A stretch of DNA of 64,000 bases from Candidatus Rokuibacteriota bacterium (GCA_003220435.1 QHSL01000070.1:5511-69510), one strand, 5' to 3'. Positions 4,122 to 42,214 are shown, numbered from the stretch's first letter. Notes: generated by a model not told the origin, from the letters alone. Translations and numbers: made by a program.

Positions 4122-4168
4122 GAGCTATTTCCCCTTCCCAGCGCACGGCCGTATGAGATAAAAGACGC

Positions 4169-6291: not shown

Positions 6292-6308
6292 TCGCCGGCG
6301 GCGCCGGA

Positions 6309-8152: not shown

Positions 8153-8225
8153 CCGGGCCTCCGTGAGAACATCGGCTCCGGACCGTCCGGGGCCGCGTCG
8201 ACGGCGCGCGGTCGTTCCCGCGCGC

Positions 8226-9476: not shown

Positions 9477-9489
9477 GCCGCGCCCGCCC

Positions 9490-24474: not shown

Positions 24475-25512
24475 ATGGCAGATGCGCTCGAGCGGCTGGA
24501 CGCGGCGACGGCGACGACCGCGCCCTGCCCGCGCCCCGATCTGCGCGTCGTCGCCCTCGGCGGTGGCACCGGCCTGCCGGCCGTGCTCCGCGGCCTCCGC
24601 GGGGCGCTGTTCGGGTCGCGTCCGCGGGATCCGGATCGCGACCCCGCCCGGCTGACGGCGATCGCCACCGTCGCCGACGACGGCGGCAGCTCGGGCAAGC
24701 TCCGGGCGATGTACCACCTGCCGTCACCGGGTGACGTCCGGAACTGTCTGCTGGCGCTCGCCGAGGGCGATCCCCTGATGTCGGACATGTTCGACTTCCG
24801 CTTCGACCGCGGCGGCGAGGTGGCGGGCCACAGCCTCGGCAACCTGATCCTCACCGCGCTCACCGAGCTGGAGCAGGATTTCTCGAAGGCCATCGCGCGG
24901 GGCGGCCGCATGCTGGCGACGCGGGGCCGCGTGCTGCCCTCGACCGCCGAGAACGTGGCGCTCCACGCCGAGCTCTGCGACGGCACGGTGATCGAAGGCG
25001 AGTCGCGCCTCGCCGACGCGCGGTGCCCGATTCGTCGCATGAGGCTCGAGCCGGCCCGCGCCGCGGCGCTGCCCGAGGCGCGGGAAGCCCTCGAGACCGC
25101 CGACGTCATCGTGATCGGTCCCGGCAGCCTCTACTCGAGCCTGATCGCGGTGCTGCTCGTCGGCGAGCTCCCCGAGGCGATCGCCCGCTCGCGCGCGCGC
25201 GTCGTGATGGTGATGAACCTCATGACCGAGCCCGGCGAGACCGACGGCCACACCGGCGTCGACCACCTGATCGCGATCCGGCGCCACGCGCCGGCGATCA
25301 CGATCCACGATGTCCTGGTCAACACGGCGCCGATCGCTCCGGAGCCGCTGGCGCGGTACGCGGCGCGGGGCGCCGTGCCCGTCCGGGCGGATGTCGACCT
25401 CCTGAAGGCGCTCGGCCACTCGGTCACCGAGTGCGATCTGCTGGCCGCCGGCGCCGAGGTGCGGCACGATCCCGCAAAGCTGACGCGCGCCATCCTGGCG
25501 CGGGTGGTCTGA
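24475..25512 (+). CDS. YvcK/UPF0052 (CofD-like) family protein.
   Basis: VVALGGGTGLPAVLRGL, TVADDGGSSGKLR, GHSLGNLILTA and IGPGSLYSS match the YvcK/GlmR-type motifs as I recall them. Confidence 0.8.
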   Translation: MADALERLDAATATTAPCPRPDLRVVALGGGTGLPAVLRGLRGALFGSRPRDPDRDPARLTAIATVADDGGSSGKLRAMYHLPSPGDVRNCLLALAEGDPLMSDMFDFRFDRGGEVAGHSLGNLILTALTELEQDFSKAIARGGRMLATRGRVLPSTAENVALHAELCDGTVIEGESRLADARCPIRRMRLEPARAAALPEAREALETADVIVIGPGSLYSSLIAVLLVGELPEAIARSRARVVMVMNLMTEPGETDGHTGVDHLIAIRRHAPAITIHDVLVNTAPIAPEPLARYAARGAVPVRADVDLLKALGHSVTECDLLAAGAEVRHDPAKLTRAILARVV

Positions 25513-25522
25513 GAGCCGTCGC

Positions 25523-26698
25523 GTGCTGGCCTACGCGATCTTCTGGACGTGTCTCTCCCTCGTGAGCTACACGTATCTCCTCTATCCGTGCGTGCTCTTC
25601 GTCATCTACGCGTTCGCCCAGGCGCGCACGGACCTCCGCTTCCTCAGCACGCGGCGCGATCGCCGACGCCGCGCGCTCGCCGACGGCGAGCTGCCGCCGG
25701 TGACGCTGATCGTTCCCGCCCACAACGAGGAGGCTCACCTCAAGGACAAGGTGGCCAACGTGCAGGAGCTCGACTACCCTCGCGGCCGCCTCCAGGTAAT
25801 CCTGGTCTCGGACGGCTCGACCGATCGCACCAACGAGATCCTCGCGGCCGTCGACGATCCGGCGGTCGAGACGCTGCTGCTCTCCGAGCGCGCCGGCAAG
25901 GCCACCGCCCTCAACCGCGCGCTGGAGCGCGCTCGACACGGGATCCTCGTGTTCTCGGACGCGTCGACCCTCTTCCACCCGGACGCGATCAAGCAGCTCG
26001 TCCGTCACTTCGCCGACCCGCGCGTCGGCGTCGTGTGCGGGGCGCTCGGGCTCCGGGGCGGCGACGAGTTCTCCCGGACCGAGGGCATCTACTGGCGCTA
26101 CGAGACGTCGCTGCGGCTCATGGAGGCGCGGCTGGGCGCGACGCTCACCGCCAGCGGCGCGATCTACGCGGTGCGCCGCGAGTGCTACCGGCCCCTCACA
26201 CCCGACGACGTCATCGACGACTTCGTCATCCCGATGCGCGCCCGCGCGCTCGGCTTCCAGGTGGTGTTCGATCCGGAGGCCCAGGCCGTCGAGTTCGCCG
26301 GGGAGTCGGTGCGGGAAGAGTTCACGCGGCGGGTGCGGATTGCGGCCGGTAGCTTCCGCGCCCTGCGCGAGCTCGCTCAGGTCCCGCTGGCGCCGCTCGC
26401 GTGCCTGGCGTTCTTCTCCCACAAGATCCTGCGCTGGGTGCTTCCGTTCCTGCTCATCGGCCTCCTGGCCGCCAATCTCTTCCTCATCGAGGGCGGGCCC
26501 TTCTACCTCGGGCTGCTGGCCGCGCAGTGCGCCTTCTATCTCTGGGCCGGCGTGGGCTTCCTCTTCCGCGAGCGCGCGCGGCCCGTGCCGCTGGCGCCGC
26601 TCTGCTACTTCCTCGTCGCCATCAACGTGGCGTTCCTGGTGGGTTTTCTGCGGTTCCTCGGCGGTCACAAGGAGACGGCATGGCAGCGCGTGAGCTGA
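25523..26698 (+). CDS. Membrane-embedded GT2 glycosyltransferase.
   Basis: GTG 25523. N-terminal TM, a GT2 catalytic core (VTLIVPAHNEE, LVFSDASTLF with DxD-like, QxxRW-like region), and C-terminal TM helices. Confidence 0.8.
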   Translation: MLAYAIFWTCLSLVSYTYLLYPCVLFVIYAFAQARTDLRFLSTRRDRRRRALADGELPPVTLIVPAHNEEAHLKDKVANVQELDYPRGRLQVILVSDGSTDRTNEILAAVDDPAVETLLLSERAGKATALNRALERARHGILVFSDASTLFHPDAIKQLVRHFADPRVGVVCGALGLRGGDEFSRTEGIYWRYETSLRLMEARLGATLTASGAIYAVRRECYRPLTPDDVIDDFVIPMRARALGFQVVFDPEAQAVEFAGESVREEFTRRVRIAAGSFRALRELAQVPLAPLACLAFFSHKILRWVLPFLLIGLLAANLFLIEGGPFYLGLLAAQCAFYLWAGVGFLFRERARPVPLAPLCYFLVAINVAFLVGFLRFLGGHKETAWQRVS

Positions 26699-27486
26699 CG
26701 CTGTCCGGCGCTCCGGTTCTGATGTACCACGGGCTCGCCGCCTCCCTGCCCGCCGCCGTCGGCGCGCGCGAGGCCAAGTACTGGGTCTCGCCCGCCGCGT
26801 TCGCGCGCCACCTCGCACAGATCCGCGAGGCCGGCCAGAGGGTCCGGCGCCTCTACGACTTCTGGTCGGGCGCGGCGGACGGACCCGACAACCGGTCGGC
26901 GATCGTACTGACCATCGACGACGGGCGGGCGACGGACTACGAGGTCGCCTTTCCCCTGCTGCTCGCGGCGGGCGTCCGGGCCGAGTTCTTCGTCAACACG
27001 GCCACGATCGAGCGGCCTGGCCATCTCACCTGGAGCCAGATCGTGGAGATGCATCGCGCGGGGATGTCGTTCCAGTCGCACGCGCACGATCACGTCCTGC
27101 TGCCCGGGATGCCGGCGCGTTTGCTGCGCAACGAGCTGGAGACCTCGAAGCGCCTCATCGAGGAACGGGTTGGCCGCGGCGTGGATTTCCTCGCCGCGCC
27201 GTACGGCCTCCTCGACCGTCGGGTCATCGCCGCCGCGCGGGACGTCGGCTACCAGGCGGTGTGCAGCTCGCTGAGCTGGCCGGCGCGACCCGGCCGCACC
27301 GTCGTGAACCGCGTCGTGGTGCATCGTGACACGACGGCCGCGCGCTTCGCCGCAATCCTGGCGCGCCAGCCCTCGGCCTTTCTCCCGAGCGTGGCGCGAG
27401 CGGCGCTGACGTACCTGCCCAGGCGCGTCCTCCTCAAGGTTCGGCCGCGCCAGCTCGGGGCCCACCTCCACCTGGAGGACGCGTGA
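26680..27486 (+). CDS. Polysaccharide deacetylase (CE4 / NodB homology domain).
   Basis: ATG 26680 with AAGGAG 5 nt upstream. Motifs VLMYHGL, LTIDDGRATDY and HAHDHVLL are typical of CE4. Confidence 0.8.
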   Translation: MAARELTLSGAPVLMYHGLAASLPAAVGAREAKYWVSPAAFARHLAQIREAGQRVRRLYDFWSGAADGPDNRSAIVLTIDDGRATDYEVAFPLLLAAGVRAEFFVNTATIERPGHLTWSQIVEMHRAGMSFQSHAHDHVLLPGMPARLLRNELETSKRLIEERVGRGVDFLAAPYGLLDRRVIAAARDVGYQAVCSSLSWPARPGRTVVNRVVVHRDTTAARFAAILARQPSAFLPSVARAALTYLPRRVLLKVRPRQLGAHLHLEDA

Positions 27487-28673
27487 GCCGCGTGGACCGC
27501 CTCAACCTCCACGTGTTCGTGCTGATCGACGCCTTCGGGTGGGAGATCGCGCAGCGGCTCGGCTTCCTCTCCGACGCGCTGCCGCACCGGGCACCGCTCA
27601 GGACCGTCCTCGGCTACAGCTCGGGCGCGATCCCCACCATGCTCACCGGCAAGTCGCCGGCCCAGCACGGACACTGGAATCTCTTCTACTACGATCCGGA
27701 GGGCTCGCCCTTCCGCTGGCTCCGGCGGTTGCATTTCCTGGGGGACAAGGTCCTCGGCCATCGAGTCGCGCGCAAGGTGGTCAAGGAGGTGGGCCGGCGG
27801 GCGCTCGGGCTCGGGCCGCTGTTCGAATGCGCGGTGAGCCCGCGGCTGCTCCCGTGGTTCAACTGGGTCGAGACGCGCAACATCTATCGGCCGCACGGCA
27901 TCCGCGGCGCCGCCTCGATCTTCGACCGGCTTGCGGTGGCCGGGGTGCCGCACCGGGTGTACACGTACCACGACGGGAGCGACGCGGAGATCCTGAGCCA
28001 CGCCCGTCACGACATCGAGTCCGGGCGAGCGACGCTGTTCTTCGTCTATCTCAGCGAGATCGACGCGTTTCTCCACCGCCACGTCGAGGACGACGCTCCG
28101 CTGAAGGACAAGTTCGCCACCTACGAGACCGAGCTTCGCGAGCTGCTCGCGACGGCGCGCCGGCGCGATCCTCAGGCCGGCCTCACGCTCTTCTCCGACC
28201 ACGGGATGACCCCGGTGCGCAGCCATTACGACCTCGCGCGCGACGTCGAAGCGCTCGGGCTCCGGATGCCCGACGACTACCTGGCCGTCTACGACTCCAC
28301 GATGGCGCGCTTCTGGTTCTTCTCCGAGCGCGCCCGCGCGCTGGTCGTCGAGCGGCTCGCGTCGGTCACCTGTGGTCGCGTCCTCAGCGACGAGGAGCAG
28401 ACGGAGCTCGGCATCGGCTTCGGCGACCGACGCTACGGCGATCTGGTGTTCCTGCTCGAGCCCGGCTGGCTCGTGTCGAGCAGCGACTTCAACGCCCCGG
28501 GGTGGCTGCCGGCCGGGATGCACGGCTACCATCCGGACGACCCGTCGTCCGACGCGATCTTCCTCAGCAACCAGGCGCCGCCGCGGGCGATGCGAACGAT
28601 CGCCGACGCGTACGCGTGCATGGCGCGCGCCGCCGGCCTCCTGCCCGAGCCCGCCGAGGCGCCCCGCCGGTGA
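27483..28673 (+). CDS. Alkaline-phosphatase-superfamily enzyme (type I phosphodiesterase / nucleotide pyrophosphatase-like), soluble.
   Basis: Metal-ligand-like motifs: HVFVLIDAFGWE (Asp), YSSGAIPTMLTGKSPAQHG (Thr nucleophile context), FSDHGM, and YHPDD...H near the C-terminus. GTG 27483 overlaps the upstream stop. Confidence 0.7.
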   Translation: MSRVDRLNLHVFVLIDAFGWEIAQRLGFLSDALPHRAPLRTVLGYSSGAIPTMLTGKSPAQHGHWNLFYYDPEGSPFRWLRRLHFLGDKVLGHRVARKVVKEVGRRALGLGPLFECAVSPRLLPWFNWVETRNIYRPHGIRGAASIFDRLAVAGVPHRVYTYHDGSDAEILSHARHDIESGRATLFFVYLSEIDAFLHRHVEDDAPLKDKFATYETELRELLATARRRDPQAGLTLFSDHGMTPVRSHYDLARDVEALGLRMPDDYLAVYDSTMARFWFFSERARALVVERLASVTCGRVLSDEEQTELGIGFGDRRYGDLVFLLEPGWLVSSSDFNAPGWLPAGMHGYHPDDPSSDAIFLSNQAPPRAMRTIADAYACMARAAGLLPEPAEAPRR

Positions 28674-29839
28674 TCTCGGTCCTTTACTTCTCGAACACGC
28701 TCGTCCGCGGCGGGGCGGAGGAGCACATCCTCACGCTGCTCCGAGGGCTCGACCGGCTGCGGTTCCGGCCCTCGCTGGTCTGCACGCCCGAGGTGGCCGA
28801 GAAGATCCGGGGCGACGTGCCGCACGACGTGGAGCTGATCGGCCTCCGCCTGCGCAAGCCGTACGAGGCCGGGGCGGTCCGCGCGCTTTTCTCGATCATG
28901 CACGAGCGGCGCCCGGACATCGTGCACTCGCACCTCTTCTATTCGAGCCTCTTCGCGTCGCCGATCGCCACGTTGGCCCGGGTCCCGCTGGTCGTCGAGA
29001 CGCCGCACCTGCGCGAGTCCTGGCGCCGAGGCCTCAAGGCCCGCTTCGTCGTCGATCGGATCGCCGGACGCTTCGTGGACCAGTACATCGCGGTGTCCGA
29101 GGCCAATCGCCGGTACCTCGTCGAGGAGAAGGGGTTGCCGCGGCACAAGGTCGTCGTGATCCACAACGGCAGCGACCTCCGGCGCTTCAACCCCCACCAT
29201 CGCGCCCCTGCCGGCATGCGGGAGACCCTCGGCTTCGGCGCGAGCGACCCGGTCCTCCTGGTCGTCGGACGGCTCGAGCCCCAGAAGGGCCATCGCGTGC
29301 TGTTCGACGCACTGCCCGCCGTGCGGGCCCACTTCCCGTGCGTGCGCGTGGTGTGCGTGGGCGAAGGGGCGCTGCGTGACGAGCTCGTCGGGCGCGTCGT
29401 GGCGTCCGGGCTCGGCGACGCGGTGCGGTTCGTCGGCCAGCAGGCGAACGTCGCCGATTGGCTGGCGCTCGCCGACGTGACGGTGCTTCCGTCGTTCTTC
29501 GAGGGGTTGCCGCTCGCGGCGATCGAGTCGCTCGCGGCCGGGCGTCCCATGGTGGCGACCGCGGTGGACGGCACGCCGGAGGTCGTGGTGGACGGCGCCA
29601 CCGGTCTCACGGTGCCGCCCGGTGACGCCGCCCAGCTCGCGCGAGCACTCTGCCGGCTCCTGGGCGATGCGTGGCTGCGCGAGAAGCTGGCGCTCGCGGG
29701 GCGCGACTGGGTCCTCGAGCGATTCAACCAGGACCGCCAGATTCAGCGCACCGAAGCGCTCTACCAGCTGGCGCTGTCGCGCCTCGGCCGCTTGCCGCGA
29801 CCGGGTGGGGTGCCGGCGACCGCGTGGGGACCGCGATGA
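28670..29839 (+). CDS. GT4 (group 1) glycosyltransferase.
   Basis: GTG 28670 overlapping the upstream TGA. VSEANRRYL...VGRLEPQKG...FEGLPLAAIESLAAGRPMV is the canonical GT4 pattern. Confidence 0.8.
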   Translation: MISVLYFSNTLVRGGAEEHILTLLRGLDRLRFRPSLVCTPEVAEKIRGDVPHDVELIGLRLRKPYEAGAVRALFSIMHERRPDIVHSHLFYSSLFASPIATLARVPLVVETPHLRESWRRGLKARFVVDRIAGRFVDQYIAVSEANRRYLVEEKGLPRHKVVVIHNGSDLRRFNPHHRAPAGMRETLGFGASDPVLLVVGRLEPQKGHRVLFDALPAVRAHFPCVRVVCVGEGALRDELVGRVVASGLGDAVRFVGQQANVADWLALADVTVLPSFFEGLPLAAIESLAAGRPMVATAVDGTPEVVVDGATGLTVPPGDAAQLARALCRLLGDAWLREKLALAGRDWVLERFNQDRQIQRTEALYQLALSRLGRLPRPGGVPATAWGPR

Positions 29840-31011
29840 AGGCCGTGATCTGCGAGGAGAGCGCGCGGCTCTGCCGGCAGGTGTATCGTGAGCGCCTTCG
29901 TGCGGTCGTGCTCGCCGGCAGCCTGGCGCGGGACGAAGGGACCTTCGTGGAAACCGAGCGGGGGCGCCGGCTGCTGGGCGACGCCGAGCTCCTGCTGGTG
30001 TTCGACGATGGGATCACGCCGCCGCCCGCCGCGGATCTCGCGCTGATCCGCGATCAGATCGAGGCCCGGCTCCGCCGGCGCGGGCTCCGCGCCGAGATCG
30101 CGCTGAGCGCGGTCGGGCGCGCCTACCTGCGCCGGTTGCCGCCGAGCATCTTCGCCTACGAGCTCCGTGCGTCCGGGAAAGCCGTCGCGGGTGAGGCGTC
30201 GGTGCTCGGGCTCATCCCGAGGTTCCCGGCGGCCGACATTCCCCGTGAGGACGCCTGGCGGATGCTCGCGAACCGGCTCGTCGAGCAGCTCGCCGGCACG
30301 GACGAGCTCCTGGATGAGCGCGCCATCCTCTCGCCGGAGGCGCACTACCGGACCGTGAAGCTCTACCTGGACATGACCACTTCGCTGCTCGTCTTCGCCG
30401 GCGCCTACGCGCCGACCTACGGGGAGCGAGCCGACAACCTCGCGCGGCTGGCGAAGTGGTCGGGGACGACGACGTGGCCGTTTCCGCTCGCGCCGTTCGC
30501 CGAGCAGGTCACGGCCGTGACCTGCTGGAAGCTCTCCGGCGGCTCGCTCGTCACCGAGGCGCGACGGATGTTCTGGGAGCGGGCGATCGACTACGCGGAG
30601 GCGCTCTGGCGCTGGGAGCTCGGCCGGCTGACGGACCCGGATCGTGTCGATTCGCCGTCGGCGCTGATGTCGCTCTGGATGCGACGGCAACCGTGGAGCG
30701 GCCGCGTCCGGGGCTGGGCCCACGTGGTTCGGGCGCGCGGCTGGCATCGCAGCTGGCCGCTCTGGCCCCGCTGGCTCCGGCAGGCCTCGCACGGATCGCC
30801 GCGCCATCTGGTCTATCGGGCCGCCAGCACCCTCGTGTTCGAGCTGCGCGCCACGGCCGGCCAGCGGCGCTCCCTGTCGGACCTCCGGCGACTCGCGCGC
30901 GATTTGCCACTCGCGACGTGGCCGGGGCAGCCCGGGCGCGATTCGCTCGGCTCCCTCGCCGCCGCGATCCTCGCCAACTACCGGAGCTTCGTGATGGAGA
31001 CCCGCGCGTGA
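29836..31011 (+). CDS. Hypothetical protein (391 aa); weak nucleotidyltransferase-like N-terminal motif.
   Basis: ATG 29836 overlaps the GT4 stop (ATGA). AVVLAGSLARDEG...GDAELLLVFDD is reminiscent of a GS...DxE minimal nucleotidyltransferase signature, but the spacing is atypical. No other recognisable motifs. Confidence 0.5.
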   Translation: MKAVICEESARLCRQVYRERLRAVVLAGSLARDEGTFVETERGRRLLGDAELLLVFDDGITPPPAADLALIRDQIEARLRRRGLRAEIALSAVGRAYLRRLPPSIFAYELRASGKAVAGEASVLGLIPRFPAADIPREDAWRMLANRLVEQLAGTDELLDERAILSPEAHYRTVKLYLDMTTSLLVFAGAYAPTYGERADNLARLAKWSGTTTWPFPLAPFAEQVTAVTCWKLSGGSLVTEARRMFWERAIDYAEALWRWELGRLTDPDRVDSPSALMSLWMRRQPWSGRVRGWAHVVRARGWHRSWPLWPRWLRQASHGSPRHLVYRAASTLVFELRATAGQRRSLSDLRRLARDLPLATWPGQPGRDSLGSLAAAILANYRSFVMETRA

Positions 31012-32957
31012 GCGTCGTGACCGCGCCGACACTCGACGCGCCGCCGGCGGAGTCTTATCGGTTCGACCCGCTCACGAGCGTCGAGGCCGCACGCTGGGAT
31101 CAGCTGATCACGCCGTACGACGGGCGCACGCTCTTCCATCAGAGCATGTGGCTCGACTACCTGGCGGCCAGTCGCCGCGTCGAGACCGCGCGGTGGGCGA
31201 TCCGCACCGAGGATCGGACCGTCGGCTACCTCTGCGGCGGCTTCTTGCAGATGGGCCCCTATCGGATCCTCGGCACGCCGCTGCGGAGCTGGGGCACGAA
31301 CGTCATGGGCCCCCTGCTCGATCACGACGCCGACCAGACCGCGCTCTTCCGCGCGCTCGATCGCCTGGCGGCCGCCGACCGGCTCGCGATGATCGAGCTC
31401 GAGCACCCCAGCCTGTCGCCCCGCCTGCTCCAGTCCTTCGGCTTCGCGCCGGTGGAGGACTGGACATATCGGGTGACGCTCGACGAGCCGAACGCGATGT
31501 GGCGCCGGCTCGAGTCCACCTGCCGCAATCGCATTCGCAAGGCGCAGACGGCCGGCCTCGTGGTCGAGGACACCGACGATCCGGCGGTCGCCGACGAATA
31601 CTACGATTTCTACCTGGACCTGATGCGCCGGAAGGGCCGCCGGCCGCCCTTCTCGCGCGAGACGCCGCGGCTGCTCTTCTCGCATCTGAAGAAAGCGGAC
31701 TGCCTGTTCGCGCTGCGCGTGCGGGACGCGGCGGGCCGCCTCCTCGCCGTCGGCCTGTTCCCGCACGACGAGCACGCCATGTACTTCTGGAGCGGCGCCA
31801 GCCGGGAAGAGAGTCATCCGCTGTGCCCCAACGACCACATGCAGTGGGTCGCCATGGGGCTGGGCGCCGGCCACGGGCTTCGGCTCTACAACATGTCCGG
31901 TCACGGACGGTTCAAGCGGAAGTTCGGCGGCACCCTGACCGCGGTCGCCCGCTGGCACAAGTGCTACTGGCGGACGGCGAAGTGGGCGCGCAAGGGCTAC
32001 CAGCTCTGGGCCGAAACGTCGGCGGCGCGCATGCCCTGGCGCCCGACCACCCCGCGATCGAGCGAGCCGAAGCGGGCCGCGCCCGCGCGGCGGAGCGTCG
32101 AGATCGTCACGACGTCGCAGCGGCCGTCGTTCCGGCCCTCGGACATTTTCAAGGCGCCGCTCCACGACTTCCCGATCCGGGACGAGATCCTCTATCAGTA
32201 CCTGTCGCTCTCGCCGGACATGGACGTGCTCGAAGTCGGGCCGGGCAGCGGTGTCACCGCGTTCCGTGTCGCCCGTCGCCTCCGCTCGCTGACCCTGGTC
32301 GACATCGCCGCGGCGAACATCGCCCATCTGCGCGGCGCGCTTGGCGGCCAGCCGAACATCCGCTTCGTGCGCGCCGACGTCTGCCAGCCCGGGCTGGGAG
32401 CGCTGCTCGGACGCACCTTCGATGCCGCGTACGCGATCGAGGTGTTCGAGCTCTTGCCGGATCCTGAGCAGTGCCTGCGGAACCTCGCGGCGGTGATCCG
32501 ACCTGGCGGGCGGCTGCTGCTCCAGTTCCCCAACTATCCGCCGTCGCTTTCGCCCGGCATGACGCACTTCCGCACCAAGGCGGAGCTCGGGCGGCTCCTG
32601 CAACGCGCGGGCTTCGGGGAGTGGAGCGTGTGCTCGCTGCGGCTGCGCCGGCACGCCTGGCTCCTGTACGAGCACCTGCACGAGCGGCCGATCCGCGCCT
32701 ACCGGCGCCACCGGAGCCCCAACGGCCACGATCGCCCGCTGATCTATGACGAGTCGTGGGCGTTCCAGCACGGCCGGCGGCTGGAGCCGTTCAAGTACGC
32801 GCTGCACGCCGCGTGGGCGGCCCTGTCGGCGGCGATGCGCGCCGGCGGCCCGGCCTTCGACCACGCCGCGGTCGGCGACGACATACTCAACCGCAACCTG
32901 ATCGTGCTCGCGCGCCGCTCGCGAGGCAGAGCCAGGCCCCTTGACCGAGACGCCTAA
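31008..32957 (+). CDS. FemAB-like (GNAT-fold, PEP-CTERM-associated type) domain fused to a C-terminal class I SAM-dependent methyltransferase domain.
   Basis: GTG 31008 overlaps the upstream TGA. The N-terminal ~350 aa resemble FemAB-family proteins associated with exosortase loci. The C-terminal ~250 aa carry MTase motif I (VLEVGPGSGVTAFRVA) and a post-I acidic residue (LVDIA). Confidence 0.72.
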   Translation: MSVVTAPTLDAPPAESYRFDPLTSVEAARWDQLITPYDGRTLFHQSMWLDYLAASRRVETARWAIRTEDRTVGYLCGGFLQMGPYRILGTPLRSWGTNVMGPLLDHDADQTALFRALDRLAAADRLAMIELEHPSLSPRLLQSFGFAPVEDWTYRVTLDEPNAMWRRLESTCRNRIRKAQTAGLVVEDTDDPAVADEYYDFYLDLMRRKGRRPPFSRETPRLLFSHLKKADCLFALRVRDAAGRLLAVGLFPHDEHAMYFWSGASREESHPLCPNDHMQWVAMGLGAGHGLRLYNMSGHGRFKRKFGGTLTAVARWHKCYWRTAKWARKGYQLWAETSAARMPWRPTTPRSSEPKRAAPARRSVEIVTTSQRPSFRPSDIFKAPLHDFPIRDEILYQYLSLSPDMDVLEVGPGSGVTAFRVARRLRSLTLVDIAAANIAHLRGALGGQPNIRFVRADVCQPGLGALLGRTFDAAYAIEVFELLPDPEQCLRNLAAVIRPGGRLLLQFPNYPPSLSPGMTHFRTKAELGRLLQRAGFGEWSVCSLRLRRHAWLLYEHLHERPIRAYRRHRSPNGHDRPLIYDESWAFQHGRRLEPFKYALHAAWAALSAAMRAGGPAFDHAAVGDDILNRNLIVLARRSRGRARPLDRDA

Positions 32958-33924
32958 GTCGAGAGTCGTACTGCGGAGCGTCCGCCGGCGCAGCCTCCTG
33001 CACGCGGTCGCCGAGTGCATGGAGCGCTGCGGCTGGGAGCAGATCGTGCCCCGCGACGCCTCGGTGGTCGTCAAGCCGAACCTGTGCACCGCCGTCGCCG
33101 ACAAGGCAGCCTCGTCCAACACCGACCCGCTGCTGGCGGAGGCGGTGTGCGAGGTGCTGCGGAGCCGTACGCGGCGCATCGTGCTCGCCGAGTCGGACGG
33201 TCTCCGCCAGAAGGCGCAGGAGGCGTTCTCCGCCTCCGGCTACGTCGACCTGGCGCACCGGCTCGACGTGCCGCTCGTGAACCTGAGCGAGACCCCGTGG
33301 GTGCCGGTGTCGTGCGAGCCGGCGGGCAACGTCGAGCTGCCGCGGCTCCTGCTCGAGGCCGACGCGCTGATCACGCTCCCGGTGCTCAAGACCCACGCGC
33401 TCACGTATTTCACCGGCGCGATCAAGAACCAGTGGGGCTGCCTGCCCCAGCACAACCGAATCTTGTTACACAAGCACCTCGATCCGCTCCTGGCCACGCT
33501 GCACCGGGTGCTCCGCCCGAAGCTGGCGATCATGGACGGCATCATCGGCATGGAAGGCCGCGGGCCCGCCAACGGCAAGCCCCGGCGGATGGACGTCGTC
33601 CTGGCGAGCCGCGACGGGGTCGCGCTCGACGCCACCGCGATGCGGCTGATCGGGCTCGAGCCGGCGCGCGCGCAGCACCTCGTGCTGACTGCCCGGCAGG
33701 GTCTGGGCCGGATCGACGCGGACTCCATCGAGGTCGACGGCGACTTCGAGGGGCTCAAGACCACCTTCGAGCCGGCGATCCTCGACCGGGCGGTCGCGGC
33801 GATGAACTACCTGAGCCGCTACCGCTGGTTCGTGAAGCACATGCTCGAGCGCGACAGCGTCTTCTACCCGATTCGCACCGTCGTCCAGGCGCTCCGGCGC
33901 GTGGGGGTAGTCGAGGGTGGCTAG
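32941..33924 (+). CDS. DUF362-family protein.
   Basis: VVKPNLCTA...LITLPVLKTHALTYFTGAIKNQWGCLP...MDGIIGMEGRGP matches the DUF362 pattern as I recall it. Start codon uncertain (TTG 32941 in the ORF track). Confidence 0.65.
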   Translation: MTETPKSRVVLRSVRRRSLLHAVAECMERCGWEQIVPRDASVVVKPNLCTAVADKAASSNTDPLLAEAVCEVLRSRTRRIVLAESDGLRQKAQEAFSASGYVDLAHRLDVPLVNLSETPWVPVSCEPAGNVELPRLLLEADALITLPVLKTHALTYFTGAIKNQWGCLPQHNRILLHKHLDPLLATLHRVLRPKLAIMDGIIGMEGRGPANGKPRRMDVVLASRDGVALDATAMRLIGLEPARAQHLVLTARQGLGRIDADSIEVDGDFEGLKTTFEPAILDRAVAAMNYLSRYRWFVKHMLERDSVFYPIRTVVQALRRVGVVEGG

Positions 33925-35131
33925 ACCGCTGCGCGTCCTCTTCGCCGGGTTGACGCTGCCGTATCCGCCGACCAACGGCCATCGCCTGCGGACGTGGGCG
34001 ATGGTGCAGGCGCTCGCCGACGACGGCCACCGCGTCACGCTCGTCGCCTTCGCCGAGCGCGCCGAGCTGCTCGGAGACCTCGAGCCCCTCCGCACCGCGT
34101 GCGCCGAGATCGATCTGGTCCCCACGCCGCTGGGCCCGCGTGGACGCGGTCGCGATGCGCTGAAGCGCCTCCGGGCGCTCGCCTCGCCGTTGCCGTTCGG
34201 GGCGTGGAAGTTCCGGTCGCCCGAGCTCAGGGAAGCGCTGGAGCGGCAGCTCGCGCGGCAGGACTTCGACGTGCTGATCTGCGACGGCGTCTACAACATG
34301 CAGAACCTGCCGGCCCATCTGGCGATCCCTGTCCTGCTCAACAAGGACGACGTCGCCCACGTTCTGATTCGGCGCTACCTCGCCCTGGAGCCGAGCACCG
34401 TCCGCCGCCTCTACGGCGCGCTCGAGGCCCGCAAAGTGGAGCGCTGGGAACGCGCGGCGCTCCGGAGGGCCGCCGCGGTTCTCGCGTGCTCCGAGCTCGA
34501 CCGGTCGCTCCTGCGCGAGCTGTGCCCGGCGGCCTCGGTGGTGGTCGTCCCCAACGTGGTGGACACCGATCACTACGCTCCCCGCGACGGCGCGGAGCCC
34601 GCCACGGTGCTCTTTCAGGGGGGGATGGACTGGCAGCCGAACCGGGACGCGGTCGAGTTCTTCGTCGCCGAGATCCTTCCGGCGCTGCGGCGCCGGGCGC
34701 CGTCCGCCCGCTTCCGGGTGGCGGGACGCAGCCCGACCGAACCGTTCCGGCGCCGGTTCGCCGAGGTCCCCGGCTTCGAGTTCTCGGGCACGGTGGCGGA
34801 CATGCGCGACGAGATCGCGAAGGCGACGGTCTGCGTGGTGCCGTTGCGGATCGGCAGCGGGACCCGGCTGAAGATCCTCGAAGCCGGCGCAATGGCCAAG
34901 CCCATCCTGTCCACCGCGCTGGGCGCCGAGGGGCTGGAGCTGGTGGACGGGGAGGAGATCGTGCTCGCGGACGAGCCGCGGGCGTTCGCCGACGGCGTGG
35001 CGAAGCTCCTCCACGATGCGGCCCGCCGCCGGGAGCTCGGTCGGGCCGCCCGGCTGCGGGTCGAGAAGCAGTACGGCCTGGCGGTCTTCAAGACGTCGCT
35101 CCGCCAGGCGGTCTCGGGCAGCCTCCGATGA
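33917..35131 (+). CDS. GT4 (group 1) glycosyltransferase.
   Basis: GTG 33917. Rossmann halves with the C-terminal EX7E-like region (GSGTRLKILEAGAMAKPILST). Confidence 0.8.
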   Translation: MARPLRVLFAGLTLPYPPTNGHRLRTWAMVQALADDGHRVTLVAFAERAELLGDLEPLRTACAEIDLVPTPLGPRGRGRDALKRLRALASPLPFGAWKFRSPELREALERQLARQDFDVLICDGVYNMQNLPAHLAIPVLLNKDDVAHVLIRRYLALEPSTVRRLYGALEARKVERWERAALRRAAAVLACSELDRSLLRELCPAASVVVVPNVVDTDHYAPRDGAEPATVLFQGGMDWQPNRDAVEFFVAEILPALRRRAPSARFRVAGRSPTEPFRRRFAEVPGFEFSGTVADMRDEIAKATVCVVPLRIGSGTRLKILEAGAMAKPILSTALGAEGLELVDGEEIVLADEPRAFADGVAKLLHDAARRRELGRAARLRVEKQYGLAVFKTSLRQAVSGSLR

Positions 35132-36387
35132 TCCTCTTCTACCTGCTCGTCACCGTGATGCCGATGATCCGCCATCCGCTGTGGTCGCAATTCGTCGGCG
35201 ACCTGACGGTCATCAAGTATCTCGGCATCGCGTGCCTGATCTACGCGGTCCTCTATCTGCCGGCGCGCGCGACGTCCCTCCGGTTCTTCGCGACGTGGCA
35301 GATACGCTTCTTCGTCGCCTTCGCCGTCCTCGTCATGATCCTGTTCGTCCGGTATGGCGACACGCTGCTGCCGCTCGAAGTGAGCCCGCTCATGAGCTTC
35401 GCGTCGTTCCTCGCCTTTCTCTTCGTCACGCTGACGGTCGTGGACTCGCTCCAGCGCCTGCGCTGGGTCCTGCTGATGGCGATCGGCTCGGTAGGCTACG
35501 CGTCGCTCCACCTGATCCGCGAGTGGCAAAAGTACGGCGGCATGGCGGCCGGCTATCGGCCGGGCTGGGTGGTCGGCGACCCGAACTACTACAGCGTCTC
35601 CGCTCTGCTCTGCATCCCGATGGCGATCTACCTCCTGCGAACGAAGCAGCCGCGGTGGGAGCGTTACTTCTGCATCGGGTCCGTGGTCGTCACGGTGCTG
35701 GCGCTCACGCTGGCCGCCTCGCGCGGCGGGCTCGTGGGCATGGCGGTCGGCCTCCTGGTGATGGCCCTCCACACGCGCCGCAGGGTGAGGATGCTGGCGA
35801 TGGCACTCGTCGTGACGCTGCCGCTCATGGTGATGGCGCCCTCGTCGCCGCTGTCGAGGATCCTGAGCCCGGACCAGCATGACGTCTACGCCGCCCAGCA
35901 TCGCGCCGACCTGGCGATGGCCGGTCTTCGGATGTTCCGGGCCCACCTGCTCACCGGCATAGGGCCCGGGAACTTCAAGCCCCTGCTCGGACAGTTCATC
36001 GACCTCGAGGAGCACAACATCGCCCACAACACTTTCGTCGAGGTCATGGCCGAGACCGGCCTGCCCGGCATCGTGCTCTTTCTCGCCACGATCGTCGCGA
36101 CATACGCCAGCCTCGAGCGGATCCGCCGGGCGCGGGAGACGAATCACGAGCTGGTCACCCGAACCGCCGAAGCGCTGGAGGTCGGTCTCACCGCGTTCCT
36201 GGCCGCCGGGTTCTTCGTTTCCGCCGAGGCCCACCGGCTCTTCTGGCTCATCATCTTCCTGTCGGCGGCGCTGGTCCCCCTGGCGGTGACCGCGACGGAG
36301 TCTTCGTCGCTGCGCGCTCCGGCCGCCCACACGCCCGTCGCGCCTGCCCCGAGAGCGCCGCGGCCGGCGCCCGAAGCGCCGCGATGA
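35128..36387 (+). CDS. Wzy-like O-antigen polymerase/ligase-family membrane protein.
   Basis: ATG 35128 overlaps the upstream TGA. About 10 predicted TM helices with a larger loop containing RxxxxxHNxxxE-like residues (EEHNIAHNTFVEVMAETG), typical of the O-antigen ligase/Wzy family. Confidence 0.78.
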   Translation: MILFYLLVTVMPMIRHPLWSQFVGDLTVIKYLGIACLIYAVLYLPARATSLRFFATWQIRFFVAFAVLVMILFVRYGDTLLPLEVSPLMSFASFLAFLFVTLTVVDSLQRLRWVLLMAIGSVGYASLHLIREWQKYGGMAAGYRPGWVVGDPNYYSVSALLCIPMAIYLLRTKQPRWERYFCIGSVVVTVLALTLAASRGGLVGMAVGLLVMALHTRRRVRMLAMALVVTLPLMVMAPSSPLSRILSPDQHDVYAAQHRADLAMAGLRMFRAHLLTGIGPGNFKPLLGQFIDLEEHNIAHNTFVEVMAETGLPGIVLFLATIVATYASLERIRRARETNHELVTRTAEALEVGLTAFLAAGFFVSAEAHRLFWLIIFLSAALVPLAVTATESSSLRAPAAHTPVAPAPRAPRPAPEAPR

Positions 36388-37637
36388 GGACACTCTTCGT
36401 GATCTCCGGCGTGCCGCTGCCGCTCAACGTCGGGGGCAACCACCGCCCGTATCACATGCTGCGGGCGCTCGCCGGGATCAGCGACGTGTCGGTCGTGTGC
36501 GCCGCGAAGGCGGGCGACGATCCACGCCATCTCGCCGAGCTTCGCGCGATGTGCCACCACGTGTTCCCGTTCCCCGATGCGTCCTTCCGCTGGCACCGCG
36601 ACACCCGGCGGCGCCTGCCGGGCCTGCGCGCGGCGCTCCAGCACCTCGACCCGTTCGAGCCGGCGCTGCTGAAGTCCTACCACTCGGCGCCCGCCGCCAC
36701 GCTGCTGAGAAACCTGGCGCAGGTGCCCTTCGACCTGGTCTGGATCGAGCGCATCCGCCTCCTGCCCAATCTGCCGCCGACCCTCCCCGGCCGGGTGATC
36801 CTCGATCTCGACGACCTCGAGCACCGCAAGCTCGCCGGCAAGCTGAGGACGCGGCGCTGGAGCCGGAGCCTGCCGTTCGACCTGGCCGACTACGTCAAGC
36901 TGCGCGCGCTCGAGCGCTCGCTCGCCCGGCGGCGATGGGAGGTGGTGGTGTGCTCGGACACGGATCGGCAGGCGCTCGGCGCCCATCCGCGCGTGTCGGT
37001 GGTGCCCAACGGTGTCGACCTGCCCGCCGTGGCCGAACGGGCCGTCGATCCGGCGTCGCCGACCTTCGTCTTCGTCGGTGCGATGTTCTACGCGCCGAAC
37101 GTCGACGCAGTGCGCTTCTTCGCGCGCGAGATCCTGCCGCGGATACGCAGGCAATCGCCGCGGGCGCGCTTCGTCGTCGTCGGACGGGACCCCCATCCGG
37201 AGGTCGCGGCGCTCCACGACGGCGACGCGATCACGGTCACCGGGACGGTCGACGACGTCGCGCCGTATCTGCGCGTCGCCTCGGTCGCCGTCGTGCCCAT
37301 CCGTTTCGGTAGCGGGACCCGGATCAAGATCCTCGAAGCCTTCGCCCACCGGGTGCCCGTCGTCAGTACCACGTTCGGCGCCGAGGGCCTCGACGTCGCG
37401 CACGGACGCGAGCTCCTCCTGGCGGACGATCCCGAGGCCTTCGCCGCCGCGTGCACCGGTCTGGCCGGCGACCGGCGATTGCAAGAAGCGCTCACCGAGC
37501 GAGGCCACGACCTCGTGCGCCACCGCTACCAGTGGCACGACGTCGAACGGCAGGTCCAGGCCCTGGCCGGCCGCGCCGACGACCGGGCGACCGCCGTCCC
37601 CGGCGCCCCTGCCCACCGAGGCGCCGAATGGCGCTGA
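36384..37637 (+). CDS. GT4 (group 1) glycosyltransferase.
   Basis: ATG 36384 overlaps the upstream TGA. C-terminal GT4 signature (PIRFGSGTRIKILEAFAHRVPVVST). Confidence 0.8.
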   Translation: MRTLFVISGVPLPLNVGGNHRPYHMLRALAGISDVSVVCAAKAGDDPRHLAELRAMCHHVFPFPDASFRWHRDTRRRLPGLRAALQHLDPFEPALLKSYHSAPAATLLRNLAQVPFDLVWIERIRLLPNLPPTLPGRVILDLDDLEHRKLAGKLRTRRWSRSLPFDLADYVKLRALERSLARRRWEVVVCSDTDRQALGAHPRVSVVPNGVDLPAVAERAVDPASPTFVFVGAMFYAPNVDAVRFFAREILPRIRRQSPRARFVVVGRDPHPEVAALHDGDAITVTGTVDDVAPYLRVASVAVVPIRFGSGTRIKILEAFAHRVPVVSTTFGAEGLDVAHGRELLLADDPEAFAAACTGLAGDRRLQEALTERGHDLVRHRYQWHDVERQVQALAGRADDRATAVPGAPAHRGAEWR

Positions 37638-39358
37638 CCTTCGACCGCTACGGAGGCGCAAAGGCCCGCCCCCTGCTCGGCGGCGGGACCGCGTTTCGCA
37701 TCGTCAAGCGGGGCCAGCGGTTCCTCCTCGCAACCCCGGACGGCAACGCCTTCTGGCTCAAGGCCTGCTACGGCATTGACATCACTGACGGCGGCGAGAC
37801 GTTCGTCCGCACGCTGCACGCCAAGTACTCCGGTGACCCGACCTACCCGACCTGGGGCTACTGGTGGCCCTTCGTGGCCCAGGCCGTGCGCAACCTCCGG
37901 CAGTGGGGCTTCAACGCCATCGGGGAATACTCGTCGAACTACGCCATGCCCGTCGATACCAACAACCGCGGGCGCGGCAACAGCGAGAAGATGCCGTTCA
38001 TCCCGCTGACCAACGCCGCGCTTCAGGCGAAACGGAGCTACGGCGTCAAAGAACTCATGTACGGCGTCGACGAAGCCGTCACGCCCGGCCTCTGGCGCGT
38101 CGAGGGCTTTCCCGACGTTTTCGATCCCGCCTTCGCGCGCGCCGTCGGCGAATTGACCTGGCCCGCCCAGCTGCCATGGCTGCTCGGGACGTCGACGGAC
38201 GACCGTGACTATCTTTTCGGCTTCGGGCCCTCACGGGCGCTCGGCGGCTGGCACAACCACCTGGGATGGCAGGCGGCAGCGACGCGCCCGACGCAGACGC
38301 GGAATCCGCGGCTCTGGGTGGGCGCGAAGCAAGGCGTCACGTACACCGACACCACGGTCTACACCAAACTGGCGCTGCGCGACCACCTGCGAACGAAGTA
38401 CCGCGCGCTGGATCAGCTGAACTCGGCATGGGGATCGCGCTACACCACCTGGGACAGCGACGACACGCCCTGGCCCACGGGCCGCGGCTTCCTCGACGAG
38501 AGCGGTCGGAGCCCCTGGCTCGGCCGTGACTTCTACTCGTTGAGCGACTCGGCGCCGGCGGTGCGGGCCGACCTCGACGAGTTCGTCGGCGTCATCGCCG
38601 AGCGTTACTTCTCGGTGACCGTCGGGGCGCTTCGGTCGAAGCGTCCGGGGCACCTGGTCTTCGGTCCGGCGACCATCAGCCCGGCGGCGCATCCCGAAAT
38701 CCTCCGGGCCGCCGGCCGCTGGTGCGACGCCGTCCAGTTCTCCAACGAAGGCGTGAAGGCGCTTCGCCGAGGCCACAGCCTGGTCGGCAAGCCGTTCTTC
38801 GTCTGGACGACCTTCATGGCCCAGGCGGATTCACCGCAGGCGAGCACGAAGGGATGGGCGGGCTTCGACTTTCCCACCCAGGCGGAGCGCGGGCGCGCCT
38901 ATGCCCGGTCCCTCAACGAGCTCACCGGCTTCCGCGCCGACGACGACACGTTCCCGTGCATCGGGATCGACTGGTGGGCCTACTGCGACAAGGTCACCGG
39001 CGGCGAATCGCACAACTTCGGCCTCGTCACCGTTCACGACAATCCGTACGACGGCGTCGCGGCGCGCGTGAGCAAGACGCGCGACACCTCGGGCCAGCCG
39101 GTCGGCGGCGAGACACGCGACTATGGCGACTTCGTGAGCCACGTCAAGCAGGCGAACGACGCCGTCTTCGAGCAGATGCGCGACCTGGCCGCGCGCGACG
39201 CGAGCAGACTCTCGAGCCGCTCGGGCCTGGCCCTGCTGCTGCCGCTGGCCGTCTGGCTCGCCCATCGGACGGACGCCCCGGCGCTCACCCGCCGCGAGCT
39301 GCTGTGCCTGCCAGGCGGCGCCGCGCCGATCGCGAGCGCCCGGAAGGTACCAAGATGA
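37628..39358 (+). CDS. Hypothetical protein, possibly a glycoside-hydrolase-like (TIM-barrel) enzyme.
   Basis: 576 aa from ATG 37628. Segments such as NLRQWGFNAIGEYSS and the Trp/acidic-rich composition resemble GH-type barrels, but I cannot assign a family by eye. Confidence 0.55.
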   Translation: MALTFDRYGGAKARPLLGGGTAFRIVKRGQRFLLATPDGNAFWLKACYGIDITDGGETFVRTLHAKYSGDPTYPTWGYWWPFVAQAVRNLRQWGFNAIGEYSSNYAMPVDTNNRGRGNSEKMPFIPLTNAALQAKRSYGVKELMYGVDEAVTPGLWRVEGFPDVFDPAFARAVGELTWPAQLPWLLGTSTDDRDYLFGFGPSRALGGWHNHLGWQAAATRPTQTRNPRLWVGAKQGVTYTDTTVYTKLALRDHLRTKYRALDQLNSAWGSRYTTWDSDDTPWPTGRGFLDESGRSPWLGRDFYSLSDSAPAVRADLDEFVGVIAERYFSVTVGALRSKRPGHLVFGPATISPAAHPEILRAAGRWCDAVQFSNEGVKALRRGHSLVGKPFFVWTTFMAQADSPQASTKGWAGFDFPTQAERGRAYARSLNELTGFRADDDTFPCIGIDWWAYCDKVTGGESHNFGLVTVHDNPYDGVAARVSKTRDTSGQPVGGETRDYGDFVSHVKQANDAVFEQMRDLAARDASRLSSRSGLALLLPLAVWLAHRTDAPALTRRELLCLPGGAAPIASARKVPR

Positions 39359-41579: not shown

Positions 41580-42214
41580 GCGTGAAAACGACCCTGATCG
41601 GTCTGGCGGGCGGCACCGGCGCGGGCAAGAGCACGATCGTGCGCGCGCTGGTGGACCGCTTCGGCGGGTGCGCGATCGACCTCGACTCGTACTACCTCGA
41701 CCGCAGCGCGCTGCCGCCGGAGGAGCGTAGCCGGGTCAACTACGACCAGCCCGCCGCCTTCGACGACGCGCTGCTGGTCGAGCACCTGGAGCGGCTCATC
41801 GCCGGCGCGGCGGTGCCGAAGCCGCTGTACTCGTTCGAGACTCACACGCGAATCGGCGTCGAGACGCTGGCGCCGGCCCGGCTCGTGATCGTCGAGGGGC
41901 TGTTCACGCTCTGGTGGGAGTCCCTCCGATCGCTGCTGGCGGTGAAGGTGTTCGTCGACGCGCCGCCCGACGTCCGCCTCGTCCGGCGCATCAGGCGCGA
42001 CGTCGCCGAACGGCACCGCACAACCGAACAGGTCCTGCAGCAGTACGTGAGCTCCGTGCGCCCGATGCACGAGCGCTACGTGGAGCCGACGCGCGCCCAC
42101 GCGGACCTGATCATCACCAACGACGGCCCGATCGAGGACACCGTAGAGCGCGCGATCAGCGCGCTCCGAGGGAGGATGGCCGATGGCTCTGCAATCGCTA
42201 CAGCGGGTCGATAA
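41576..42214 (+). CDS. Uridine kinase / phosphoribulokinase-family P-loop kinase.
   Basis: LIGLAGGTGAGKST Walker A, DLDSYYLD and the overall Udk-like pattern. ATG 41576 overlaps the upstream TGA. Confidence 0.75.
   Translation: MSVKTTLIGLAGGTGAGKSTIVRALVDRFGGCAIDLDSYYLDRSALPPEERSRVNYDQPAAFDDALLVEHLERLIAGAAVPKPLYSFETHTRIGVETLAPARLVIVEGLFTLWWESLRSLLAVKVFVDAPPDVRLVRRIRRDVAERHRTTEQVLQQYVSSVRPMHERYVEPTRAHADLIITNDGPIEDTVERAISALRGRMADGSAIATAGR

Follow-up and report, generated by a model that had tools for sequence, protein, structure and literature searches.

In a stretch of DNA from an uncultured soil bacterium, a member of Candidatus Rokuibacteriota (64,000 nucleotides, GCA_003220435.1 QHSL01000070.1:5511-69510; termed the window, at its full length, below) we identified a gene that joins a FemAB-like domain and a methyltransferase in one polypeptide. 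The gene is part of an exosortase-associated exopolysaccharide (EPS) locus, and its product combines a predicted tandem-GNAT domain of the FemABX fold with a C-terminal class I S-adenosylmethionine (SAM)-dependent methyltransferase. We favour, at about even confidence, the reading that the fusion is a cytoplasmic enzyme with two glycan-tailoring functions in the exosortase-associated EPS pathway and acts on a deacetylated amino sugar. The fusion is an uncharacterised variant of enzyme types already known and does not amount to a system of a new kind.

Coding frame of the fusion gene

The fusion gene (31008..32957, + strand) is one stop-free open reading frame (ORF) of 649 amino acids (aa) plus the stop codon. 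Since the G+C content of the window is ~70%, at which long spurious ORFs are common, we examined the frame-specific G+C content at third codon positions (GC3). In the frame of the fusion ORF it stays at 0.84-0.98 from ~31020 to ~32950, including the stretch over the inter-domain linker, where it is 0.94-0.96. Just upstream and downstream of the gene the coding signal moves to other frames. An 833-aa ORF in the same frame, starting at 30456, was rejected as spurious, since the signal upstream of 31010 belongs to the preceding gene. The GTG start codon at 31008 overlaps the stop codon of the upstream gene (GTGA), and a GGAG Shine-Dalgarno-like motif, read from the sequence, is found 8 nucleotides 5' of it (30996..30999, +). 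The position of this motif, inside the end of the upstream gene, suggests translational coupling. A separate gene call on the identical contig in the European Nucleotide Archive (ENA) gives the same 649-aa product.

A word-indexed homologue search recovered 79 related clusters. Fem-like and methyltransferase parts are both present in 45 of them, at 83-100% coverage and 47-100% identity; these proteins are mostly ~630-650 aa long and were drawn from ENA, JGI, NCBI and Logan assemblies. Because so many clusters hold both domains at full length, a chance or assembly-derived fusion can be rejected, and it is extremely improbable that we are looking at a sequencing artefact or at two genes read as one. 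Such an artefact could be suspected because two related loci from long-read metagenome-assembled genomes (MAGs; L005 and L006) are frameshifted in the same region. However, the same architecture recurs in independent assemblies down to 47% identity, the coding signal is continuous, the separate gene call is identical, and the split forms of the two genes found in other loci have the opposite order, so that a lost stop codon is impossible.

A preliminary description of this DNA had predicted a FemAB-like domain and a methyltransferase in a single in-frame polypeptide. The stop-free ORF, the coding signal in one frame and the 45 full-length fusion clusters bear this out, and the three methyltransferase motifs that it quoted (VLEVGPGSGV, LVDIA and VIRPGGRLLL) are all found in the 649-aa translation. 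It had also known of no described fusion of this kind, and our full-text literature searches likewise found no paper describing a fusion of a Fem-like protein and a methyltransferase. Automated annotations already tag some fusion members with both domains.

The N-terminal Fem-like domain

The N-terminal domain comprises aa ~17-340 (31056..32027, +), as delimited by Pfam, a weak TIGR03019 match, an AlphaFold2 (AF2) model, Foldseek and profile searches against the PDB. Pfam Acetyltransf_6 (PF13480) matches aa 170-298 with 41.9 bits, against a cut-off of 22, and Pfam FemAB (PF02388) scores 14.3 bits, below its gathering score of 24; many homologues of the fusion do have precomputed PF02388 matches. 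The best NCBIfam match of the N-terminal half is TIGR03019 (pepcterm_femAB; E 4.6e-16), which aligns aa 28-306 with profile positions 1-274 of 330. The score of 58.8 bits is far below the cut-off of 260.35, which leads us to reject membership of this equivalog family and indicates that the domain represents a separate subfamily of the Acetyltransf_6/FemABX fold. Thus, the preliminary description, which saw in it the recognised FemAB-related accessory of exosortase loci, was right about the FemAB-like character and the exosortase locus but not about the family.

The AF2 model of this domain has predicted local distance difference test (pLDDT) values mostly above 85. Its top Foldseek matches in the PDB are Sbb17 and Sba18 (E 8e-16, TM-score 0.77 on target), which are described as 'aminoacyl-tRNA-dependent peptide synthases' and were crystallised with the amino sugar streptothrisamine. 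They are followed by FemX of Staphylococcus aureus, FemA and FemX of Weissella viridescens. TM-scores on target are 0.63-0.78 for Sbb17/Sba18 and FemX and 0.51 for FemA (1lrz), and the acetyl-CoA-binding tandem GNAT protein 2wpw is a poorer match (0.54). Profile searches against the PDB give the same ranking (9wqy, 3e-13; 6snr, 4e-10). The modelled domain thus has the tandem GNAT fold of FemABX enzymes.

Several sequence features point in the same direction. A basic helix, CRNRIRKA, is found at aa 172-179, and its residues R173, R175 and R177 do not vary across 35 fusion and 18 stand-alone sequences. A GAS..CPN motif is found at aa 263-275, and in the profile search against the PDB this GAS...PN segment is matched to S. 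aureus FemX. F302-K303, within GRFKRKFGG, is invariant in the same 35 and 18 sequences. The catalytic lysine of FemX is Lys305, and in DhpH-C the catalytic lysine K329 directly follows F328 (PMC12945691); F302-K303 is likened to these residues by motif only, as the profile alignments end just before it. The predicted secondary structure shows no coiled-coil insertion. Judged by its conserved residues, the N-terminal domain looks intact.

The linker and the methyltransferase module

The two domains are joined by a Pro/Arg/Ser/Thr-rich linker (aa ~341-370; 32028..32117, +), recognisable by its pLDDT, its gapped alignment columns and its GC3. The linker is predicted to be disordered (pLDDT <50 at aa 341-362), and its length varies among homologues. 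The model of the full fusion has a mean pLDDT of 81.9 and two confident domains.

The methyltransferase module (aa ~371-637; 32118..32918, +) was defined by Pfam, invariant columns, stand-alone homologues and Foldseek. It begins with a conserved leader, RPSFRxSDIxxAPLHDFPIRDEIL, and ends in a conserved, family-specific helical/beta C-terminal extension (aa ~548-637). Four Pfam models exceed their gathering scores over aa ~392-536, namely Methyltransf_11 (55.7 against 21.2 bits), Methyltransf_23 (54.2 against 27), Methyltransf_12 (50 against 30) and Methyltransf_25 (49.8 against 27). Motif I, LEVGPGSG (aa 408-415), is invariant across 35 sequences, as are E409, G413, G415, D432, D457 and G500, D432 being the acidic residue that closes beta2 and D457 the Asp of motif II. 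In the AF2 model beta and alpha elements alternate over aa 406-546, forming a Rossmann core, and Foldseek finds the class I methyltransferases RebM, AtmM, TleD, MitM, PMT2 and CmoM-like proteins. By models, motifs and predicted fold, the module is a class I SAM methyltransferase that looks intact. The complete C-terminal methyltransferase of the preliminary description is therefore well supported, and domain annotation came out as it had expected, with Acetyltransf_6 at the N-terminus and Methyltransf_11, Methyltransf_12 and Methyltransf_23 at the C-terminus above their cut-offs, the FemAB model alone being sub-threshold.

Alternative architectures among the homologues

The other clusters have different architectures: nine of the 79 encode two Fem-like domains in tandem (~700 aa), 19 a Fem-like domain only (typically about 360 aa) and six a methyltransferase only, two of these being generic methyltransferases. 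The fusion clade is narrow: an exhaustive profile search leaves the full-length fusion with about 2-3 clusters when 50% identity is applied. The same search recovers numerous stand-alone Fem-like proteins. Also numerous are methyltransferases that stand alone, share the leader and the C-terminal extension and cover profile positions 371-644. Contigs carrying the family belong to Candidatus Rokuibacteriota (including the closest relative, L001, at 84% identity), NC10, Acidobacteriota/Acidiferrales/Terriglobia and Nitrospiria MAGs; the fusion clusters themselves come from Rokuibacteriota and NC10.

Four arrangements are seen in the related loci. The fusion, with the Fem-like part before the methyltransferase, is found in the window and in L001-L004. 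In L011, L012 and L006, the last with an assembly frameshift, a methyltransferase gene is followed by a separate Fem-like gene; in L005 it is followed by a gene for a tandem Fem-Fem protein; and in L007, L008, L010, L013-L015 and L017 the methyltransferase stands alone. The constant element of the cassette is thus the methyltransferase, with the Fem-like part being optional. A six-frame ORF hmmsearch detected no second, remote Fem-like gene in the methyltransferase-only loci or elsewhere in the window, a marginal GNAT match in L006 being its lone exception. The fusion on which the preliminary description centred is real, but by synteny it is only one of several arrangements of a two-part module. 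As the split loci have the reverse gene order, a simple loss of a stop codon was rejected as the origin of the fusion.

In rough neighbour-joining trees of both domains, calculated without bootstrap, the fusion proteins appear to form essentially one clade, in which the short protein P0061 and the methyltransferase-only genes of L007 and L008 are nested. These trees suggest a single fusion clade with occasional loss. One further protein, P0329, has an N-terminal methyltransferase before its Fem-like part. We rejected it as an instance of the same fusion, since its methyltransferase is unrelated to that of the window (BLASTP E 0.46), and it represents an independent fusion. Fem-like and methyltransferase domains were fused at least twice. 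Across the set P0293, P0305/P0328, P0341, P0329 and P0334, the Fem-like subfamily is joined to a GT4 glycosyltransferase, to ATP-grasp domains, to a Wzx/MurJ-like flippase, to this unrelated methyltransferase and to a RACo_C ASKHA domain; in P0320 it is joined to a classical Acetyltransf_1 GNAT. The subfamily is a promiscuous, putatively glycan-tailoring module.

Two observations concern individual loci. The tandem Fem-Fem proteins (L005 6762-8855, P0026, P0038 and others) are ~700 aa long and carry two Fem-like copies; in L005 the gene lies directly after the stand-alone methyltransferase gene, an arrangement that recalls the stepwise additions of FemA/FemB-type enzymes. Moreover, frameshifts that are probably due to faulty assembly interrupt the methyltransferase genes at L005 5795-6747 and L006 10022-10826, which calls for caution when architectures are counted from such assemblies.

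The exosortase locus and its conserved cassette

The fusion gene sits in a long co-directional gene chain. PrsK (43411-45489, +), PrsR (45501-46847, +), PrsT, a TIGR03013 priming glycosyltransferase and a TIGR03027 exporter in the window all score above curated cut-offs, and the exosortase (42554-43414, +) passes the generic model TIGR02602 only. The chain also contains a Wzc-like co-polymerase/kinase, several stp1/stp2-like GT4 enzymes and a Wzy_C protein. These matches agree with the PEP-CTERM/exosortase gene chain that had been named as the setting, and indicate that the locus is a genuine XrtA/PEP-CTERM-type polysaccharide locus.

A cassette around the methyltransferase module is conserved across phyla. 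Its order, determined by tblastn synteny, is GT2, CE4, PF01663, GT4, a 395-aa gene, the module, a DUF362 gene that may be present or absent, GT4 and Wzy_C. In the window it starts with a GT2 glycosyltransferase (25523..26698, +), recognised by synteny and by weak PgaC/NodC-like matches. Next comes a CE4 polysaccharide deacetylase (26680..27486, +; PF01522, 81 bits; weak PgaB/NodB-type matches; synteny), which is present in all nine related loci that reach this position (L001, L002, L004, L006, L011, L012, L014, L015 and L017) and is the candidate source of a free sugar amine. It is followed by an alkaline-phosphatase-superfamily protein with a Pfam match to PF01663 (Phosphodiest; 27513..28673, +), itself a conserved cassette member, and by a GT4 glycosyltransferase that is TIGR03088-like below the cut-off and was placed by synteny (28670..29839, +).

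The gene immediately upstream of the fusion encodes a 395-aa protein (29824..31011, +) that matches no Pfam or NCBIfam model. Its family comprises >445 clusters, every one of them annotated as 'hypothetical'. The AF2 model (pLDDT 90.7) retrieves AAD(9), AadA and HalB in Foldseek, that is, an ANT/AadA-like nucleotidyltransferase (NTase) fold, and the protein keeps an intact GS...DxE signature. Its gene directly precedes the methyltransferase module in 15 of the 15 related loci that cover the upstream side, a count that leaves aside L009 and L016, whose contigs stop short of it. The NTase-fold protein may be the true functional partner of the methyltransferase, and its presence together with the PF01663 protein hints at a phospho-substituent on the glycan.

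Downstream, a DUF362 gene (32941..33924, +; weak Npun_F2552-like match) overlaps the stop codon of the fusion. It is found in L004, L007 and L010 and is absent from the closest relative L001, and is thus facultative. The cassette continues with a TIGR03087-like GT4 (33950-35131, +; an alternative call of 404 aa starts at the GTG at 33917) and ends with a Wzy_C/O-antigen-ligase-like membrane protein (35128-36387, +).

Discussion

In the mechanism that we favour, the CE4 deacetylase would act on a repeat-unit precursor, linked to a nucleotide or a lipid, and free the amine of an N-acetyl-hexosamine in it; the Fem-like domain would put an aminoacyl group on this amine. Like FemX, Orf11/Sba18 and probably VimA, the domain would most likely take that group from an aminoacyl-tRNA. 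The methyltransferase domain would methylate the same intermediate, our preferred guess being N-methylation of the same amine before acylation, following a NodB, NodS, NodA logic. This order fits cassettes that have the deacetylase and the methyltransferase but no Fem-like gene; that both modifications lie on the same nitrogen is favoured, if weakly supported, by analogy. The fusion would thus unite two tailoring steps that other lineages encode in adjacent separate genes. Indeed, the functional linkage of the two halves is argued for by L011 and L012, where they are neighbouring genes, as compared with their fusion in the window. A glycan precursor as the substrate is suggested by the GT4, flippase and ATP-grasp fusions of the Fem-like relatives and by the CE4 enzyme of the cassette: the GT4 and flippase fusions speak for a glycan precursor that is lipid-linked and faces the cytoplasm, and the ATP-grasp and tandem Fem forms for amino-acid or peptide chemistry. 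A tandem Fem-Fem protein suits the stepwise addition of amino acids better than it suits acetylation. The preliminary description had left open whether the target is the polysaccharide or sorted proteins; the glycan context speaks for the former, and the latter has little in its favour. Its proposal of an aminoacyl- or acyl-transfer step and a methylation step in one polypeptide agrees with the single ORF and its two apparently intact domains, which would carry out the two steps.

Parts of this scheme have parallels in known systems. NodB, NodS and NodA are a deacetylase, a SAM N-methyltransferase and an N-acyltransferase that act on one glucosamine nitrogen of Nod-factor chitooligosaccharides. 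The logic would be the same here, and there are weak matches to NodS (methyltransferase) and to NodB and NodC (cassette), but all Nod scores lie far below the cut-offs and the fold of NodA is unrelated, so that NodB/NodS/NodA serve as an analogy only. WbdD of the Escherichia coli O9a pathway is a methyltransferase-kinase fusion that caps O-antigen chains. It is likewise a two-domain glycan-tailoring enzyme with a class I methyltransferase, but the partner is a kinase rather than a GNAT and the pathway depends on an ABC transporter. FemX, FemA and FemB share with the N-terminal domain the tandem GNAT fold and the basic helix, and its F-K pair resembles their catalytic pair by motif. FemA has a coiled-coil insertion, which is not predicted for the domain in the window, where PF02388 is moreover sub-threshold; the acceptor of FemABX enzymes is a peptidoglycan precursor, whereas that of the fusion is likely an EPS precursor.

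The best structural and profile match of the N-terminal domain, Sba18/Sbb17 (Orf11-type; PDB 9wqw, 9wqx and 9wqy), belongs to the biosynthesis of BD-12/glycinothricin, where the C2 amine of streptothrisamine receives a glycyl group from Gly-tRNA by the action of a Fem-like enzyme (PMC10156733). These proteins are only about 18% identical to the domain, stand alone at ~310 aa and serve an actinomycete antibiotic pathway with a small-molecule acceptor. In the Wbp/Vim system of Porphyromonas gingivalis and Tannerella forsythia, VimE (CE4) and VimA, which matches TIGR03019, make 2-N-seryl and 2-N-glycyl sugars, VimA setting the amino acid, and these sugars link cargo of the T9SS (type IX secretion system) to A-type lipopolysaccharide (PMC7468200). 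In that sortase-type system Ser or Gly is thus placed on the unmasked C2 amine of a sugar bound for a surface glycan. The resemblance lies in the pairing of a CE4 deacetylase with a Fem-like protein, but the Wbp/Vim system serves the T9SS while the pair in the window is in an exosortase locus, and VimA stands alone whereas the Fem-like domain is fused to a methyltransferase. The N-terminal domain is likened to VimA via their shared match to TIGR03019, not by direct sequence comparison. Compared with TIGR03019 proteins themselves, it is homologous over nearly its whole length and belongs to the same type of locus, an exosortase/PEP-CTERM EPS locus, but the family model describes a stand-alone protein of ~330 aa (profile length 330), as opposed to 649 aa with a methyltransferase. 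HfsK of the Caulobacter crescentus holdfast is a FemX-like tandem GNAT protein proposed to acylate amines exposed by HfsH (PMC5362036). As compared by description only, it is similarly FemX-like and genetically tied to an EPS pathway and a polysaccharide deacetylase, HfsH, but it stands alone and has a C-terminal tail that binds cyclic-di-GMP.

A number of points weigh against the favoured mechanism. The N-terminal domain misses the thresholds of both TIGR03019 and PF02388, and the predicted template modelling score of the full model (pTM 0.55) leaves the relative orientation of the two domains uncertain. The six-frame ORF hmmsearch found no Fem-like gene within +/-10 kb in the seven methyltransferase-only loci, so that the two activities are not obligatorily coupled. 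The NTase-fold neighbour could mean that the methyltransferase acts on a phospho- or nucleotidyl-substituent and not on an amine. The best matches of the methyltransferase are chemically mixed, comprising plant phosphoethanolamine N-methyltransferases, CmoM, UbiG, RebM/AtmM and, weakly, NodS, and the nearest structures therefore do not discriminate between N- and O-methylation; RebM and AtmM are sugar O-methyltransferases. Membership of the NodS family was rejected (PF05401, 20.3 against 24; NF041650, 18.7 against 300), and the NodS structure 3ofj is matched at E 1.6e-6 only in the profile search. Finally, members of the fusion family are known from their sequences and predicted structures, and it is from these that we infer the donor, the acceptor, the methylated atom and any link to exosortase sorting.

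The donor is where the most serious alternative arises. The Fem-like domain could be an acyl-CoA-dependent N- (or O-)acyl- or acetyltransferase of the CelD/BcsL or HfsK type, which, in the same bifunctional glycan-tailoring role, would acylate the deacetylated sugar anew, using a group other than aminoacyl, with the methyl group added elsewhere. It would be in keeping with this that the Pfam model passing its threshold is Acetyltransf_6, that JGI labels homologues 'CelD/BcsL family acetyltransferase', that the relative P0320 is fused to a classical Acetyltransf_1 GNAT and that the acetyl-CoA tandem GNAT 2wpw is among the structural matches; moreover, GNAT donors are versatile, and the authors of the HfsK study made no donor prediction. 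However, all the best structural and profile matches are aminoacyl-tRNA-dependent enzymes, the Fem-type F-K pair is invariant, the GAS...PN segment aligns with S. aureus FemX, and the occurrence of the Fem-like domain in tandem or joined to ATP-grasp suggests chemistry of the peptide type. In addition, no R/QxxGxG/A loop for the CoA pyrophosphate was seen when the sequence was read by eye, which is not a formal test. We therefore regard an acyl-CoA donor as possible but doubtful. A protein target is very improbable. In that case it is not a glycan but proteins, for example PEP-CTERM cargo or enzymes of the pathway, that would be aminoacylated or acylated and methylated, as is conceivable given that many GNATs and class I methyltransferases modify proteins and that there are weak, sub-threshold matches to PCMT and HemK-type models. 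Yet these protein-methyltransferase matches are far under the cut-offs, the other cassette genes encode glycosyltransferases, a deacetylase and a Wzy_C protein, the Fem-like relatives are fused to GT4 and flippase domains, and the enzymes closest in structure have sugars or peptidoglycan precursors as substrates.

A further alternative gives the aminoacyl-sugar itself a role in sorting, as the 'linking sugar' that would accept PEP-CTERM proteins from the exosortase, with the methyltransferase tuning or capping the handle. Its parallels would be the VimE/VimA sugar used by PorU, the sortase of the T9SS, and the Gly5 bridge that Fem proteins build for sortase A. Veith et al. speculate in this direction for VimA-related proteins encoded beside a deacetylase, glycosyltransferases and an exosortase (PMC7468200), and the locus does have a CE4 deacetylase, a Fem-like domain, an exosortase and PrsK, PrsR and PrsT. 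It is, however, unlikely. Many cassettes that are otherwise identical do without the Fem-like part, the domain is not a TIGR03019 equivalog, and N-methylation of the alpha-amine would hinder transpeptidation. A crude regex scan of the 64-kb window found no ORF with a PEP motif and a basic C-terminal tail, and among the 39 window ORFs scanned against NCBIfam there were no Wbp genes (WbpA/B/E/D) and no WbpS/asparagine-synthase-like amidotransferase; the sole aminotransferase among the scanned ORFs is DesI-like and belongs to a separate ABC-transporter glycan cluster. The more specific form of this idea, in which the exosortase acceptor is an N-aminoacyl (possibly N-methylated) sugar built from aminoacyl-tRNA and the methyltransferase sets the number of reactive handles, seems to us slightly less probable again.

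Were the linking-sugar idea true, the aminoacyl-sugar would be the exosortase counterpart of the Wbp/Vim sugar of the T9SS and of the Fem-built bridge of sortase A; were the donor an acyl-CoA and the methylation ordinary O-methylation, the fusion would be a routine tailoring enzyme. The fusion bears on two standing questions, the role of FemAB-like proteins in exosortase loci and the attachment target of exosortases. Together with its split, tandem and methyltransferase-only relatives, the fusion provides Rosetta-stone-type evidence that places the Fem-like protein and the methyltransferase in one set of EPS tailoring steps. It also defines a cassette that is wholly uncharacterised and widespread among uncultured phyla dominant in soil (Rokuibacteriota, NC10, Acidobacteriota and Nitrospiria), and offers a compact one-protein target for asking whether aminoacyl-tRNA-dependent aminoacylation extends beyond peptidoglycan and antibiotics to exopolysaccharides.

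Further features of the window

Several other genes of the window deserve mention. Within the EPS chain, between the exporter and the GT2 gene, lies a gene related to YvcK/CofD, a UDP-GlcNAc-binding family (24583-25512, +), which L001 and L002 have conserved as well. The product of 37628-39358 (+), 576 aa long and lacking significant family matches, is conserved across phyla as part of the cassette in L001, L004, L013 and L017. Immediately 5' of the exosortase gene there are a uridine kinase and a small cupin resembling the C-terminal part of mannose-6-phosphate isomerase (41582-42554, +); uridine kinase homologues are also found inside the cassette in L014 and L015. Two sigma-54-type enhancer-binding regulators are encoded 5' of the EPS chain (14787-16163 and 16310-17656, +), besides PrsR, and the second of them has no receiver-domain match. 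Finally, a set of glycan genes on both strands beside PrsT (2733-10389) encodes a DltB/MBOAT-like protein, a GT2, the DesI-like sugar 4-aminotransferase, a hexapeptide acetyltransferase and an ABC exporter of the Wzm/Wzt type, and by its gene content looks like a system for an ABC-transporter-dependent polysaccharide with an acetamido-dideoxy sugar.

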